Assembly: GCA_965217895.1 (NCBI GenBank)
Contig: CBDCJV010000002.1
Coordinates: forward strand, 4,576,001-4,640,000
Direction: 5' to 3'
Source: Waterburya sp.
GTDB lineage: Bacteria > Cyanobacteriota > Cyanobacteriia > Cyanobacteriales > Xenococcaceae
DNA: 64,000 nucleotides
Shown here one piece after another: positions 6,059 to 58,093 of this stretch (positions within the stretch are counted from its first letter, which is position 1; every line of letters begins with the position of its first letter). Both the position numbers and the translations under genes were made by a program. The notes under the pieces were generated by a model, which worked only from the letters and a program-made list of their open reading frames with translations, did no database searches and was not told where the DNA came from.

Positions 6059-7018
6059 TTAATTTCTGCCGTAGGTTTTGATTGGCTCTTTAATAAAGCG
6101 AATATAAAAGTTTTTAAAGGTTGATCGCAACACGCGAGGCAACCCAAAGTCAATCGGCATTAAAGCATCAGGCAATTTCCAGTCTGCTACCTGTAAGTCT
6201 GCTGGTTTGCAGTAAGGAAACTCTATTTCAGAGAGTTCAGAACAGTATCCCTGTTTGAATTGGGCAGCCAGAGTAGGTATAACTTTGGGGTCAACATTGA
6301 GAATATCAATCATGGCGCGATCTAAGGCAAACACGTCAGTAGACGCGCCCAAAACTCCTAATTGCTTGGGTTCACCGCTACTAGGGCCATTACCCTCATG
6401 ACCAATAATACCGTCAATTATGGTCAAATTAGGCGCGATCGCCTTGGCAGTTTCGACAATCATTTCTCCAAAGCGTTCGGCATCTTTACCTGCCTCCATG
6501 TGCCACCAAGCCTTCATCTTGCCAGGGACACAGCCAAAGAGATTTTTTACTCCTAAAGTCATCGTTAACTGCATATGAGATTTTACCTTTGGTAAATTAA
6601 TCACCACGTCTGCATCCATTGCTTCTTTAGACAGGCGGAGATGCTGAAAGTTTTCATTTTCGGTGGCGTAACGCTGTCCTTTAAATTCTACAATCGGTAA
6701 ATTTAATTCGGCACATAAAGGTAAATAACCATTAGCTTTTGCCACTCCTCTAGCACTTCCAAAGGCAGGACTATCCCCCAGGAAAGGTTTTCCCCCTGCT
6801 TCTTTTACCAGTTGGGCAACGCAGTAGACAATTTCAGGACGAGTAATACATTCTTTGGTAGGACGACTACCCGTAAGTAGATTAGGCTTTAACAAAACGC
6901 GATCGCCTTTTTTAATGATGGCTTCTATTCCCCCCAGGGGTTCGAGTAAATATTCAAGGCGCGATCGCAATTCCTGTAGCTCGTAAGACTCAGCGCGAAT
7001 TAGACTAACTGTATACAT
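6059..7018 (-). CDS. DUF362 domain protein
   Basis: VLLKPNLL, INLPKVKSH, GVKNLFGCVPG, DGIIGHEGNGP motifs. Confidence 0.88.
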   Translation of the reverse strand: MYTVSLIRAESYELQELRSRLEYLLEPLGGIEAIIKKGDRVLLKPNLLTGSRPTKECITRPEIVYCVAQLVKEAGGKPFLGDSPAFGSARGVAKANGYLPLCAELNLPIVEFKGQRYATENENFQHLRLSKEAMDADVVINLPKVKSHMQLTMTLGVKNLFGCVPGKMKAWWHMEAGKDAERFGEMIVETAKAIAPNLTIIDGIIGHEGNGPSSGEPKQLGVLGASTDVFALDRAMIDILNVDPKVIPTLAAQFKQGYCSELSEIEFPYCKPADLQVADWKLPDALMPIDFGLPRVLRSTFKNFYIRFIKEPIKTYGRN

Positions 7019-7111
7019 TTTTTTAGTTTATTTTTAAGCAAGTTATGCAAATTCTATCTCTTCTGCTTAAAATTTAAACCATAGTCGCCTCCACCGAAAA
7101 AAGAGTAAAAG

Positions 7112-8377
7112 CTATTCAGCAAAAGTTTTTACTCCACCCTCAGGATCTAATAGTAGACGAATTACTGATTTTTGAGATTTAGTAATAGGAGAAATAAATG
7201 ATTCTCCCTTCACGGGAATATTAGTTTGACTTAAATACAACTCTGAAGCTTTGCCTAAAGGAATTACTCGTTTGATTGAGCCATTAGGGTTAAGATATAA
7301 ACGATATTCAAGACTTTGTTTTAGGTCTGCTGGCGGTTGCCATTTAGCTTGAAAATAAACCTGAATTTCTTGTAATTGAGCAGATTGCGCAGGATTTTGG
7401 CTAGATGAAATTGAACCTAAATCTTCAGGCGATTCTGAGGGTGAATTATTAACTTTCGCGGACTTAGATTCATTGGATTCAGCAGAATTAATCTCGGTTT
7501 TTGACTGTGGATTCAATCTCGCTATTCTTTGATCTTTAGCTTCAGCAGGAGTTACAGTATTTAAGTGTGATCGCTCACCTACTCGATCTAGTGGATAGTC
7601 AGCAGGATCGGGAATATTTGGTTTGGGTTTTGGGGTATCTACTGCTGGGGGTGGTGGTAGTCTTTTGGTAGATGAAAGAGGTTCATTCGATTTTAGTTTA
7701 GCGGTTGTTCTATCTATCTTTGGTATTTGAGGAGGTACAATTTCATTAAATCGAGGAGTCTTTTCTATCTTTTGAGAATCTGATTTGGAGTCGGTGGCAA
7801 CATTTTGAGGAGCGGGAGATTTTAAAACGACACCAGCAATCCCTACCGCAGCTATAGTTGCAGCAGCCATAGTACCCCAAAGAGGAATTGTTTTGTTGAG
7901 TTGAGTTTGTTTTAGTTCAGGTAAGGCTGCAAATTGGGTTGTGTATGCTTCTAAAGCAGTGACCAAATCAAATAACTGTACTGTGCTTAGCTGAATATTG
8001 TCCGCAGCAGCGTCATGAGTTAGATTAGCCAAAAATAATTGATGAGCAACTAATCCTTTGGGTTTTAAACAAGGATAATTGTTATTTAGTTTATGGTCTA
8101 TTTTTAAATCTACGTTTGATTTAGTTGCAAGATTTAGACTAGCGTGTAAAAATTCTTGAACATATCTATCAACTACTATTTTCAACTGTTCTAAATCTGA
8201 TTGGCTGCCTTTGATTTTGACCTGCTTGCTGGTAGGTAATTGTGGATCATCAAAGCTTAAATGAAACTGAAGTTTTTTAAGCATTTCTCGATTTGTCCAG
8301 CGAGATAAAGGAGATTTATTACCTTTTATTTCTAAAGTACAGGTAGGAGGTGTAAAACGATGAAATGTAATAGACAT
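7112..8377 (-). CDS. DUF4335 protein (TM helix, Pro/Ser-rich linker, TonB-C-like C-terminus; SepI-like)
   Basis: HRFTPPTCTLEI start, LSTVQLFDLVTAL, one TM segment, C-terminal YFQAKWQPPADLKQSLEYRL. Confidence 0.75.
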   Translation of the reverse strand: MSITFHRFTPPTCTLEIKGNKSPLSRWTNREMLKKLQFHLSFDDPQLPTSKQVKIKGSQSDLEQLKIVVDRYVQEFLHASLNLATKSNVDLKIDHKLNNNYPCLKPKGLVAHQLFLANLTHDAAADNIQLSTVQLFDLVTALEAYTTQFAALPELKQTQLNKTIPLWGTMAAATIAAVGIAGVVLKSPAPQNVATDSKSDSQKIEKTPRFNEIVPPQIPKIDRTTAKLKSNEPLSSTKRLPPPPAVDTPKPKPNIPDPADYPLDRVGERSHLNTVTPAEAKDQRIARLNPQSKTEINSAESNESKSAKVNNSPSESPEDLGSISSSQNPAQSAQLQEIQVYFQAKWQPPADLKQSLEYRLYLNPNGSIKRVIPLGKASELYLSQTNIPVKGESFISPITKSQKSVIRLLLDPEGGVKTFAE

Positions 8378-54048: not shown

Positions 54049-54669
54049 TTAACCAGCGTAACCCTTATCGATCGCTAAATTACGCCCATGTGCTGCTGCA
54101 ACAGCTAGGCGATCGCACCTTTCGTTTTCGCTTATGCCTGAATGAGCTTTTACCCAGACAAATTGAACATCATGTATTTTGCAAAGATCGAGTAATTCCT
54201 GCCACAGATCGGGATTTTTAGCCATTTCCTTGGCATTTCTGCGCCAGCCGTTAGCCTGCCATTTTTTTGCCCAGCCTTTGACTACGGCATCAACAATATA
54301 TTTGGAGTCACTATGCAGCTTGACTTTAGAATTAGACTTGAGAGATTCTAAAGCGGCGATCGCACCCATCATTTCCATACGGTTGTTGGTAGTAAGCTTG
54401 TAGCCTCCAGAAATTTCTTCGCGGCGATCGCCATCTATAATTACCGCGCCATATCCCCCTGCTCCAGGATTACCAGTACAAGCACCATCGGTGTAGATTA
54501 TGATGGTTTCTTGGGAAGTAGATCTAGATGATTTTGGTTTGAGATTTATAGTCAGCTTAGAAGATTTTGCAGTTTGGGGTTGAAGAGATTTGATATAGTC
54601 TAAAACATCAGGTAACAAGGATTCAGGAAGAGATTCAATTTCTGTCGTAATTTTGTGCTTATAATCCAT
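54049..54669 (-). CDS. rnhA: Ribonuclease HI with N-terminal extension
   Basis: IYTDGACTGNPG, TTNNRMEM, DSKY, KNPDLW, WVKAHSG...NERCDRLA. Confidence 0.95.
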   Translation of the reverse strand: MDYKHKITTEIESLPESLLPDVLDYIKSLQPQTAKSSKLTINLKPKSSRSTSQETIIIYTDGACTGNPGAGGYGAVIIDGDRREEISGGYKLTTNNRMEMMGAIAALESLKSNSKVKLHSDSKYIVDAVVKGWAKKWQANGWRRNAKEMAKNPDLWQELLDLCKIHDVQFVWVKAHSGISENERCDRLAVAAAHGRNLAIDKGYAG

Positions 54670-54764
54670 TGCTAACAAGCGTAATTTTACGCCTTACATG
54701 ATAGTTTATTTGCAGAGTTTTCGGTCTTGTGGATACTTGCTGTTGATTCATTACTCATAAATTT

Positions 54765-55424
54765 ATGTCAGTTAACAAAGTATTTTTATTTGTACCGAAC
54801 ATTATTGGCTATAGCAGATTTATCTTTTATTCAATTAGCTTTATTTGTCATACACTCGACAACTGGCAACTTTGTATTAGCTTTTATGCGATCGCCTTTA
54901 TTTTAGATGAATTTGATGGTCGTGCTGCCAGAGCCTATAATCAAAGCAGTAACTTTGGTGCAGCCCTTGATATGGTTGCGGATCGCACGGCTACGGCGGG
55001 TTTGTGTTTAATTTTGGCGCAATTATATCCTAATTATTTATTAGCCTTTATTGGTGCAATCGCTCTTGACGTTAGTAGCCACTATTATTTAATCTACGCT
55101 ACGGGGATGCTAGGTAAAACCAGCCATAAAGATTCGACTGAGTGGGCAACTAATGGACTAATGAAGCTTTATTATGGCAACAAGCCTTTTATGGATGTGT
55201 CGATCTTAGGAAATGAATTATTTTATATTTTGCTTTATCTCAATTTTTATCTTATTGGTGGTCATTTGACAATCAATGATTGGAATTTTACTGGAGTCCA
55301 AATAGCTCTAATAATTTGTATCCCAATTTATTTGCTCAAACAAGCTACTAATGTTTTACAGTTGCAGAGTGCAGCACAAGAAATTGCTAAATTAGATTTA
55401 ATCAGCCAAGAAGAAAATAATTAA
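54765..55424 (+). CDS. CDP-alcohol phosphatidyltransferase, eukaryotic phosphatidylinositol synthase-like
   Basis: Signature DEFDGRAAR...G...D...D, plus PIS-type blocks FLFVPNIIGY, LDVSSH, SHK, GNELFYILLYL. Confidence 0.88.
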   Translation: MSVNKVFLFVPNIIGYSRFIFYSISFICHTLDNWQLCISFYAIAFILDEFDGRAARAYNQSSNFGAALDMVADRTATAGLCLILAQLYPNYLLAFIGAIALDVSSHYYLIYATGMLGKTSHKDSTEWATNGLMKLYYGNKPFMDVSILGNELFYILLYLNFYLIGGHLTINDWNFTGVQIALIICIPIYLLKQATNVLQLQSAAQEIAKLDLISQEENN

Positions 55425-55630: not shown

Positions 55631-58093
55631 ATGGCGAAAATTCTCAACCGACAACAAGCATTTGGCGCACCAGGTATCGAACCCCGCTGGACTCACTCTA
55701 ATAAAGATGGAGTAGGTACGGCATATTCAACTTCTAGTAAAGTTTGGTTTACCCTTTGGAAAGGAATTTTAACCGAGGTTTATTTCCCCTTTATCGATCA
55801 GCCTCAAGTTAGAGACTTACAGTATTTAATTACTGACGGACAAAGCTTCTTTCATGAAGAAAAGCGCGATTTAAAATCACAAACCGAACTACTTTGGAAT
55901 TGGGGTTTGGGTTATCGCCTTACTAACACCGCACCCGATGAAAGTTACAGCATAGTTAAACAAGTAATTAGCGATCCTCATTCTGATTGCATACTGCAAC
56001 ACACTAAGCTTACAGGTGACTCTTCTGTCCTCGATCGCCTTAAACTATATGCTCTTTGTGCGCCTCATTTGAACATTAGTGGCTGGGGTAATAATGGCTA
56101 TGTAATTGAAGTAGGCGATCGCAAGTTCCTAGTAGCCAACAAGGGCGATAAATGGCTAGTTGTTGGTGCTACCGTCCCTTTTAAAAAGCTTTCTTGTGGT
56201 TATGTCGGCAACAGCGATGGCTGGCAGGATTTAGCCGATAACTATCAGATGGATTGGGAATTCGATCGCGCCGAAAACGGTAATATAGGTTTGACGGGAG
56301 AACTAGATTTAACCAAAACTAAAGAATTTACTTTAGGATTAGCCTTTGGCTTCAGTTTAGAAAATGCCCTGGCTAATTTATTACAATCTTTAAATACTTC
56401 TTTCGAGCAACAACAGCAAACTTTTAAACAGCAGTGGTTACGAACCTGTGATAAGCGTTTACCTTTAGAAAGTCAATCGAGTGACAATGGTAATTTATAT
56501 CATACTAGCGTTAGTTTATTACTAGCTCACGAAGATAAAACCTATAGTGGTGCAACGATCGCGGCGATGAGTTTTCCTTGGGGAGAAAAAAAGGGAGATG
56601 GCGATCGCGGTGGCTATCATTTAGTCTGGACAAGGGATATGGTCAACAGCGTTACTGGACTGATGGCAGCAGGTCATACTGATACAGCAGTAAGAGCGTT
56701 AACCTATTTAGTAACTTGTCAGCACGAAGACGGCAGCTTTGCTCAAAACTTCTGGTTGAATGGTGAGCCTTATTGGCAAGGAATGCAGCTAGATGAAGTA
56801 GCTTTTCCGCTCTTACTAGCCGACGCGCTAGAACGAGTCGATGCCCTGCCAGTTTTTGATGTCTATCCCATGATTATTCGAGCAGCGGGATATCTAATTC
56901 GCCAAGGGCCCGCGACTCAGCAAGAACGTTGGGAAGAAGACGGGGGCTATTCTCCCTCTACCCTAGCTTGTAATATTGCAGCCCTAATTTGTGCAGCGAG
57001 GTTTGCCCGTCAACGAGGAGATGAAGTCACTGCTCAGTATATTGAAGAGTATGCCGACTTTTTAAAAGACCACACCGAAGCTTGGACGGTAACGACACAA
57101 GGAACGCTCCTACCAGAAATTAAGCGACATTTTGTCAGAATTACCCCAGCTAAAGTAGATGTTCCCCATCCCAATGAAGACCCGAACAACAGTACCATAA
57201 TTCTTTCGGCTCGTCCTCCTGGAACTGAATCAGAATTCTCAGAAAACAAATCGGCAGAATTTCCGACTAAAGAGGTAGTAGATGCAGGATTTTTATTATT
57301 TGTCCGCTATGGCATCATCGCTGCTGACGACCCCTTAATTATTGATTCTCTTAAAGTTATCGATGCAGTTCTTAAGGTCGATACTCCTTATGGTTCAGTT
57401 TGGCGAAGATTTAATCACGACTGGTACGGACAGAAAGAAGATGGTAGTGCCTATCAAGGCGTGGGTGTGGGACGCGCCTGGCCCCTGTTAGCTGGTGAAC
57501 GCGCTCACTACGAACTAGCTGCGGGAAATGATGTCACCCCGTTTATTAAAGCAATAGAAGGTTTTGCTTCCGATACTGGTCTGTTGACCGAACAAGTTTG
57601 GGACAGCGATGATATACCCGACGCACATATGTACTTGGGCAGACCCACAGGTGCAGCAATGCCCTTAATGTGGGCGCACGCGGAATATACCAAGCTCTTA
57701 CGTTCTTGTAAAGATAAACGAGTTTTTGACTATATTCCCGAAGTGGGCGATCGCTATCTTAATGCGCGTTCCCTTGCGCCTGACGGCGACGCGGGGTCGC
57801 ATCGCTACTTAAACAACTATAAATCCCAAGCTTTAGAAGTCTGGAAGTTTCACCGCCAGGTAACAACTGTTGCTCAAGGCAATACGCTCAGGATACAGAC
57901 CGAGAAAGCGTTTAAACTACGCTGGACACAAGACGAATGGCAGACCCAGCAAGATCTTGAATCAACCGCGATCGCACCTTTAAATCTTAATTATGCCGAT
58001 CTCAAATGTGAGCGATTGCGGATCGAGTTTACCTTCTTTTGGACTGATAGCAGCAATTGGTCTGAGTGTAATTATACCGTTGAAGTTATCTAG
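55631..58093 (+). CDS. Glucoamylase / glucan 1,4-alpha-glucosidase (GH15)
   Basis: AFGAPGIEPRWT, GGYHLVWTRD, QERWEE, GRAWPLLAGER, EQVWD, PLMWAHAEY. Confidence 0.93.
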   Translation: MAKILNRQQAFGAPGIEPRWTHSNKDGVGTAYSTSSKVWFTLWKGILTEVYFPFIDQPQVRDLQYLITDGQSFFHEEKRDLKSQTELLWNWGLGYRLTNTAPDESYSIVKQVISDPHSDCILQHTKLTGDSSVLDRLKLYALCAPHLNISGWGNNGYVIEVGDRKFLVANKGDKWLVVGATVPFKKLSCGYVGNSDGWQDLADNYQMDWEFDRAENGNIGLTGELDLTKTKEFTLGLAFGFSLENALANLLQSLNTSFEQQQQTFKQQWLRTCDKRLPLESQSSDNGNLYHTSVSLLLAHEDKTYSGATIAAMSFPWGEKKGDGDRGGYHLVWTRDMVNSVTGLMAAGHTDTAVRALTYLVTCQHEDGSFAQNFWLNGEPYWQGMQLDEVAFPLLLADALERVDALPVFDVYPMIIRAAGYLIRQGPATQQERWEEDGGYSPSTLACNIAALICAARFARQRGDEVTAQYIEEYADFLKDHTEAWTVTTQGTLLPEIKRHFVRITPAKVDVPHPNEDPNNSTIILSARPPGTESEFSENKSAEFPTKEVVDAGFLLFVRYGIIAADDPLIIDSLKVIDAVLKVDTPYGSVWRRFNHDWYGQKEDGSAYQGVGVGRAWPLLAGERAHYELAAGNDVTPFIKAIEGFASDTGLLTEQVWDSDDIPDAHMYLGRPTGAAMPLMWAHAEYTKLLRSCKDKRVFDYIPEVGDRYLNARSLAPDGDAGSHRYLNNYKSQALEVWKFHRQVTTVAQGNTLRIQTEKAFKLRWTQDEWQTQQDLESTAIAPLNLNYADLKCERLRIEFTFFWTDSSNWSECNYTVEVI

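Follow-up and report, generated by a model that had tools for sequence, protein, structure and literature searches.

Phosphatidylinositol synthases (PIS) that accept free inositol have been described as eukaryotic, and the route that uses inositol phosphate as prokaryotic (PMC4634129). As presented in the same source, PIP synthases always possess two arginines for inositol phosphate (R153 and R191, in TM4-6), which eukaryotic PIS do not have. The inositol phosphoceramide (IPC) synthases described from yeast, Dictyostelium and Bacteroides are LPP-type enzymes with phosphatidylinositol (PI) as donor (PMC11402645, PMC8791184, PMC9246714), and CarS is an enzyme that activates a lipid phosphate other than phosphatidic acid (PMC9385802). 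For cyanobacteria, PMC8895605 gives two organisms with reported ceramides, no sphingolipids found in Nostoc punctiforme, and neither a genetic basis nor a characterized sphingolipid enzyme; cyanobacterial enzymes homologous to human ceramide kinase receive a passing mention in PMC10331486.

The window, i.e. the whole stretch of 64,000 nucleotides of Waterburya sp. DNA that was analyzed, contains an ORF that is, as judged by sequence comparison, a member of a conserved cyanobacterial clade of the eukaryotic PIS family, and this clade is probably embedded in an inositol-sphingolipid pathway. The gene and its features are located as follows.

54765..55424, + strand: gene of the PIS-family CDP-alcohol phosphotransferase (P0001), 219 aa, ATG to TAA, intact ORF
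54742..55424, + strand: stretch common to the closest relatives, with 91-92% DNA identity; the similarity stops at these bounds
54888-54895, unstranded: HIP1 octamer GCGATCGC within the gene (chromosome mean 1.1 per kb)
54906..54983, + strand: CDP-AP signature D48-x-x-D51-G52-x-x-A55-R56...G65-x3-D69-x3-D73 (translation compared with the motif in PMC8727905)
55068..55082, + strand: PIS-specific D102-x-x-S105-H106 block (column conservation)
55125..55130, + strand: PIS-specific H121-K122 (column conservation)
55170..55217, + strand: PIS-specific Y136-Y137 to E151 (column conservation)

PF01066 is the sole Pfam match of the 219-aa protein (E 9.3e-16), which does not contain an LPP/PAP2-type (Aur1/BT_1522-type) domain, and its predicted model shows six long helices with a mean pLDDT of 89.8. 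An earlier note, made from the DNA letters, had assigned the protein to the eukaryotic PIS family on the basis of motifs, and these are found in the translation: FLFVPNIIGYSR at residues 7-18, the LDEFDGRAARAYNQ...FGAALDMVADR block at 47-74, LYP at 87-89, LDVSSH at 101-106, GKTSHK at 117-122, GNELFYILLYL at 149-159, LLK at 190-192 and AAQEIAKLD at 204-212. Of the motif that had been written as N....YY, the residues N130, Y136 and Y137 are present, but five residues and not four lie between them.

Sequence comparison bears out the family assignment itself. With 20 named eukaryotic PIS rows, which span fungi, animals, Trypanosoma, Mantamonas, Plagiopyla, Anaeramoeba and others, the protein shares 33.5-40.6% identity over 181-230 columns (E 2e-33 to 5e-49), and the best match among 14 prokaryotic PgsA/PssA/AIPS-like rows reaches E 5e-9 over 46 columns only. 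A profile built from the 20 eukaryotic rows gives it 220 bits, compared with at most 51 for the 14 prokaryotic rows. Of 147 PIS-family rows from outside the cyanobacteria, at least 80% agree in each of 41 columns, and the protein matches 38 of these columns. The residues D102, H106, H121, K122, Y136, Y137, E151 and K192 each occur in at most two of the 14 outgroup rows; D102 and H106 are each found in 145 of the 147 other PIS rows, in all 27 rows of the cyanobacterial clade and in two outgroup rows, and H121 and K122 have the same counts inside the family, with two and one outgroup rows, respectively. An isoleucine, I147, replaces a cysteine that is present in 135 of the 147 other PIS rows. 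The comparison with actinobacterial PIP synthases was by NCBIfam score only (24 bits against a cut-off of 170). The protein passes the cut-off of no NCBIfam model; for the PIP/AIP synthase models it scores 24/170, 35/180 and 19/350 bits, 35 of 180 being its best result.

An identity as ordinary PgsA was rejected, with a TIGR00560 score of 28.8 bits against a cut-off of 109.1. The window genome contains two PF01066 genes, the PIS-like gene and a separate true PgsA (176.5 bits). In an Atlas feature search, the first matches of the protein are PIS clusters (0.96-0.97). Foldseek placed CDP-APs on top, none of them at E 0.001 or better, and returned no eukaryotic PIS, and sequence searches of the PDB gave alignments confined to the CDP motif. 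The family label is already on record, as JGI annotates many homologues as CDP-diacylglycerol--inositol 3-phosphatidyltransferase. There is no arginine beyond residue 74, so the R153/R191 pair of PIP synthases is without counterpart, and free inositol, which the earlier note had proposed, is probably the acceptor of the PIS-like enzyme.

For a FastTree phylogeny of 193 rows, 23 of 202 candidates were dropped because they covered fewer than 170 profile columns, and 14 outgroup rows were added. The 179 PIS-family rows are split from the 14 outgroup rows with a support of 98, and a cyanobacterial clade of 27 rows, about half of which are only assumed to be cyanobacterial, is found inside the PIS family with the same support. 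A careful tree of 60 hand-chosen rows recovers the clade (98/94) and leaves the backbone open; its outgroup is split, with two long outgroup rows among the PIS rows, and the PIS-like gene never joins PgsA. A check for grouping with ordinary PgsA thus found no such grouping in either tree. A tree constrained to place the clade beside all other PIS rows, as their sister, scores 6 log units higher and is not rejected (p-AU 0.652). As the backbone is open and this position is not rejected, the eukaryote-to-cyanobacterium direction that had been suggested for a transfer is tentative. The patchy spread leads us to favor with fair confidence a gain from a eukaryote, and we regard it as quite improbable that the clade, instead of deriving from eukaryotic PI synthases by transfer, is a bacterial lineage sister to all of them. 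A donor lineage was not found in these trees, the nearest row (P0388) being long-branched.

Separate places elsewhere in the tree are taken by PIS-like genes from two bins of Bacteroidota, one gammaproteobacterial bin, a Symploca bin and a giant-virus bin, so that gains of the family may have been repeated. A single origin of all prokaryotic PIS-like rows has a log-likelihood that is 38 lower (p-AU 0.06) and is disfavored, though not rejected. In the Symploca bin (G461, L077:4981-5635 and 6124-7311), the PIS-family gene lies tail to tail with Ino1, and its start is in a frame different from that of the rest, near a T run, as in a pseudogene or after an assembly error; no KDSR-like or CarS-like match was found in this bin. 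The genes of the two Bacteroidota bins and the gammaproteobacterial bin (L073:1475-2119, L075:4995-5642 and L076:1921-2541) include two, those of the Bacteroidota bins, that are located downstream of a dicarboxylate symporter, and the two of these genomes that were searched (G462, 0.8 Mb; G463, 2.0 Mb) gave no Ino1 match. These enzymes could be host-derived and use host inositol. The giant-virus bin (IMG/VR GVMAG, L043:2992-3636) encodes a full-length PIS-family protein with 37% identity, the one confirmed case among 39 pattern matches. Among the other family members, P0198 (410 aa) consists of two PIS units in tandem, and P0197 (471 aa), a sponge protein, has about twice the usual length.

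The PIS-like gene is native and under purifying selection. Among 3397 chromosomal ORFs it lies at the 65th percentile in codon adaptation and at the 38th in GC3, and its dN/dS against seven orthologues is 0.06-0.19. The earlier note had called the gene native as well, which codon use, GC3 and the HIP1 site GCGATCGC confirm. Since the similarity to the closest relatives stops at 54742 and 55424, the gene stands alone, with flanks that differ even among close kin. On one side lies a divergent RNase H gene and on the other a GH15 glucoamylase. The window neighbors RNase H, DUF2854, GH15 and psbB were absent from all 34 longer loci searched, and an operon with them was rejected on this ground. A promoter and terminator scan remained at chance level (three found, 4.4 expected). 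The RNase H gene (54049-54678, - strand) has an N-terminal DUF2281-like stretch that stays below the cut-off, and the contigs of relatives cease to match at 54734, next to this gene. A short multi-copy element at about 57763-57807, within the GH15 reading frame, shows a depth spike and many loose ends in four runs.

The flanks of the PIS-like gene are unlike those of even 94-95% identical orthologues, as they would also be if the gene were a contaminant, a product of chimeric assembly or a recent import in decay. However, the gene is present in 37 of the 61 family genomes, including assemblies of one and two contigs, and native codon use, the HIP1 site and the low dN/dS argue against contamination or decay. 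Also the depth of exact-match contigs is even, at 35-37, through the gene and its flanks in one sample, possibly the source, and one such contig crosses the 3' junction. The only contig across the 5' junction is 80 bases long and reaches 30 letters into the gene side, one fewer than the bridging rule requires. Contamination or chimerism was rejected on the family distribution and the selection signal, and we give such an artifact practically no probability. A second, partial PIS-like copy with a stop is found in another genome (G447:C1:5226012-5226275) amid transposase remnants.

Within the family, the PIS-like gene occurs in 35 of the 39 genomes of the genus and in two of the 22 outside it, and a phylum sample of 400 genomes contained only three other carriers. 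A prokaryote-wide scan with one strict peptide pattern, in which 35 of 58 stretches were confirmed, gives a lower bound. Named relatives with 51-95% identity belong to Pleurocapsa, Waterburya, Xenococcaceae, Oscillatoria, Jaaginema, Leptolyngbyaceae and Pseudanabaenales, and culturable carriers among the named matches include Pleurocapsa sp. FMAR1, Pleurocapsa sp. CCALA 161 and Waterburya agarophytonicola.

Several genes are inherited together with the PIS-like gene. These lie outside the window, scattered over the same chromosome (G000:C2 of the window genome), as do the candidate genes for the lipid backbone.

G000:C2 878216-878764: CarS-like gene
G000:C2 about 880260-882049: FAAL gene
G000:C2 882120-883214: Ino1 gene
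G000:C2 1447168-1448466: gene of a sphingosine-kinase-like kinase
G000:C2 2869465-2870271: KDSR-like gene
G000:C2 3710207-3711841: ACP-oxoamine synthase gene

Over the 61 family genomes, the presence or absence of Ino1 and of the kinase each agrees with that of the PIS-like gene in 60 cases, and that of the CarS-like gene in 58; these genomes are kin and not independent, so that the counts stand for few events. In the window genome, these four genes are found at three distant places. All four are missing from one relative (G431, 99% complete), although its own relatives have them at three separate locations; it has retained a FAAL gene (80%) and those of the ACP-oxoamine synthase and the KDSR-like protein. 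In the phylum sample, this type of Ino1 is found in five of 400 genomes and the kinase in four, both including all three other carriers. No CarS-like match was obtained in G406 (81% complete) and G414 (100%), which carry the PIS-like gene, Ino1 and the kinase. The backbone genes are far wider spread than the module, the KDSR-like gene occurring in 56 of 61 family genomes and, across the phylum, in 21 of 381. This distribution fits a sphingoid-type backbone that is common and a module for the inositol head group that is optional.

In distant cyanobacteria, these genes form clusters with the PIS-like gene. At the loci L067 and L069, Ino1 is located directly upstream of it, and genes of a FAAL, a B12 radical-SAM protein and a lipid kinase lie nearby. 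In G298, a single 12.5-kb contig contains the kinase, CarS-like, GT4, Stealth, LicD and KDSR-like genes, a FAAL-ACP-oxoamine synthase, a FAAL and Ino1, and its end has a 17-base overlap with another contig, which breaks off within the PIS-like gene. In G459, a cluster that spans about 30 kb comprises FAAL, FAAL-PKS, Ino1, a further FAAL, desaturases, ACP, oxoamine synthase, the CarS-like gene, the kinase, the PIS-like gene, glycosyltransferases and a sulfotransferase; here, the PIS-like gene lies tail to tail with the kinase and adjoins the CarS-like gene. G459 also has a reducing PKS and a TMEM189/CarF-type Lipid_desat domain, and we take the latter to fit ether lipids too. In G460, the PIS-like, kinase, CarS-like and FAAL genes share one contig, and Ino1, FAAL, ACP-oxoamine synthase and KDSR-like genes another. 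A 2550-aa reducing PKS that ends in an ACP and an oxoamine synthase domain is encoded at L083:10492-18141 (G000:C2 about 3885.5-3893.1 kb); similar proteins occur in many family genomes, and it could make an unusual long-chain base.

The co-inheritance of Ino1, which is present in 36 of the 37 carriers of the family, indicates that the inositol is probably home-made and not scavenged. A search of the window genome for ino1 and inositol monophosphatase found Ino1 and four inositol-monophosphatase-family genes, and the scavenging that had been envisaged earlier was dropped as not needed, all the more as Ino1 is directly upstream in L067 and L069. The latter arrangement, together with the lack of a phosphatase within the clusters, would also suit inositol 1-phosphate, or another cyclitol, as acceptor, as in bacterial PIP synthases, and in G364, which is without the PIS-like gene, an AIPS-like enzyme seems to take this role. 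This acceptor is nevertheless very unlikely, as PIP synthases need two arginines in TM4-6 (PMC4634129) and the PIS-like protein has none beyond residue 74, as K122 and K192 are common to the PIS-like protein and eukaryotic PIS, and as the four monophosphatase-family genes are at hand in the window genome. In G364 (L099:9055-11306, L149:2248-12845, L122:832-3122), the kinase adjoins the AIPS-like CDP-AP, FAALs, oxoamine synthase, KDSR-like and CarS-like genes lie together on another contig, and an Ino1 of a different type adjoins an inositol-dehydrogenase-like gene. This appears to be a parallel module in which the same roles are filled by unrelated enzymes.

The partner proteins point to a sphingoid lipid to different degrees. 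The kinase is, by its sequence matches, closer to eukaryotic SphK/CERK than to bacterial DgkB/YegS: among solved relatives, sphingosine kinase 1 ranks first (E 1e-50), followed by acylglycerol kinase (1e-22) and bacterial DgkB (3e-11), and its CERK_C score is below the cut-off. The solved structures closest to the oxoamine synthase are plant LCB2a, Sphingobacterium-type SPT and SPT2, and in NCBIfam bioF (343/426) scores above SPT (316/640), both under the cut-off. For the KDSR-like reductase, TSC10 is the best single-domain match (E 9e-28), one of two at 1e-25 or better; this is modest for an SDR, and no NCBIfam cut-off is reached. The CarS-like protein has a weak match in Pfam (E 2e-9) and a clear one in Atlas (0.96). 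As CdsA and a separate BioF-like gene, besides PgsA, are also present in the window genome, the CarS-like protein and the ACP-fused oxoamine synthase come in addition to the standard set. CdsA was present in all five carriers tested.

The PIS-like gene thus belongs to a larger module. As this module also comprises the sphingosine-kinase-like kinase, the CarS-like protein and genes of the sphingoid-base type, an inositol sphingolipid may be its product instead of phosphatidylinositol. In the pathway that we propose, FAAL would load a fatty acid onto ACP, the SPT-like oxoamine synthase would condense the fatty acyl-ACP with serine to a ketosphingoid, and the KDSR-like reductase would convert this to a sphinganine-type base. 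N-acylation by a further enzyme could take place before or after the kinase and CDP steps. The sphingosine-kinase-like kinase would phosphorylate C1, and the CarS-like protein, in parallel to the separate CdsA, would turn the lipid phosphate into a CDP-lipid. Ino1 and one of the four inositol-monophosphatase-family proteins would supply myo-inositol. The PIS-like enzyme would then release CMP and form an inositol phosphoceramide-type lipid, to which the products of neighboring glycosyl- and sulfotransferase genes may add further groups. Some phosphatidylinositol may be formed by the PIS-like enzyme as well. That the enzyme performs this last head-group step, in which free myo-inositol is attached to a sphingoid or ceramide lipid activated with CDP, is in our estimate just short of an even chance. 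The full proposal, IPC by a route that the searched literature does not describe, from a eukaryote-like sphingoid module, CarS-family activation to CDP-ceramide or CDP-sphingoid and a repurposed PI synthase, is tentative and appreciably below even.

Several observations count against the inositol-sphingolipid reading. Characterized PIS use CDP-diacylglycerol (PMC4634129), the oxoamine synthase scores higher as bioF than as SPT, and the reductase match is modest, as is the Pfam match of the CarS-like protein, which has no counterpart in G406 and G414. A search for ceramide synthase (PF03798) had no match in five genomes, with control genomes equally silent. The wider spread of the backbone genes and the TMEM189/CarF-type domain in G459 also speak against it.

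The main rival, which we judge rather unlikely, is a true PI synthase that forms phosphatidylinositol from CdsA-made CDP-diacylglycerol and home-made myo-inositol, the PI being the end product or the donor for a further transferase that makes IPC. The conservation of 38 of 41 PIS columns, CdsA in five of five carriers and the missing CarS-like match in two carriers fit it, and the IPC routes in the cited work take PI as donor (PMC11402645, PMC8791184, PMC9246714). But it leaves unexplained why gains and losses of the kinase and of the CarS-like gene follow those of the PIS-like gene and why both adjoin it in G298, G459 and G460, and for PI as IPC donor, the clusters contain no Aur1/BT1522-like gene, PF14378 (PAP2_3) giving weak matches only in two of five carriers. 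A further alternative, which seems improbable, is that inositol is joined to a CDP-lipid built on something other than diacylglycerol or a sphingoid, for example on an alkyl-ether glycerolipid, on a long-chain diol or on another FAAL/PKS-built amino alcohol. Archaeal CarS activates ether lipids (PMC9385802), acylglycerol kinase is the next solved relative of the kinase, the oxoamine synthase is below the SPT cut-off, and G459 has the Lipid_desat domain and the reducing PKS; however, the sphingosine kinase match is far stronger than that to acylglycerol kinase, and the combination of an oxoamine synthase with a KDSR-like reductase and a sphingosine-kinase-like kinase points to a sphingoid base.

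The literature that was searched, with subscription journals mostly outside its scope, contained no description of the PIS-like clade or of the module, and the term CDP-ceramide was absent from it; a CDP-ceramide intermediate, if true, would be new chemistry relative to this literature. A conserved bacterial PIS clade breaks the split between eukaryotic PIS and prokaryotic PIP synthases drawn in PMC4634129. As the module supplies candidate genes for almost every sphingolipid step and culturable carriers exist, the question is directly testable. Inositol sphingolipids in biofilms and mats could then have a cyanobacterial source besides a fungal or plant one.

Compared with known systems, the PIS-like protein resembles eukaryotic PIS (PIS1/CDIPT, EC 2.7.8.11) in length, CDP-AP motif, conserved columns, the lack of the PIP-synthase arginines, an identity of 33-41% to fungal, animal and protist members and the six long helices of the predicted model. 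It differs in its cyanobacterial host, in the clade-specific residues Y22, H29, E49, C81 and I147 (for the conserved cysteine), and in its ties to kinase, CarS-like and sphingoid-type genes, and because of these ties its CDP donor may not be CDP-diacylglycerol. With PIP/AIP synthases (Mycobacterium PgsA1, Bacteroides BT_1523, AIPS) it shares the CDP-AP superfamily, the link to Ino1 and an inositol phospholipid product, which is predicted here, but the likeness is limited to the surroundings of the CDP motif, with scores of 19-35 bits where the cut-offs are 170-350, and the arginine pair is missing.

IPC synthesis in fungi, protists and Bacteroides (Aur1, DdIPCS1, BT_1522) has the predicted product class and the combination of Ino1 and a CDP-AP in common with the cyanobacterial clusters. 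In these routes, an LPP-type enzyme moves phosphoinositol from PI to ceramide (PMC11402645, PMC8791184), whereas the clusters contain no LPP-type gene and have a kinase and a CarS-like protein instead. The CpgABC ceramide-phosphoglycerate pathway of Caulobacter likewise starts the attachment of a ceramide head group with a lipid kinase, the ceramide kinase CpgB, and its genes are located with spt (PMC10331486, PMC11324152). However, its head group is phosphoglycerate (PMC11324152), its later steps are as yet unsettled, and CpgB is a bacterial-type kinase, whereas the cyanobacterial kinase is closest to eukaryotic sphingosine kinase. The archaeal archaetidylinositol pathway, in which CarS is followed by AIPS, has the same logic of a dedicated CarS-family activation and a CDP-AP that then adds inositol (PMC9385802); in contrast to it, the cyanobacterial clusters contain no isoprenoid ether genes, and their transferase belongs to the eukaryotic family.
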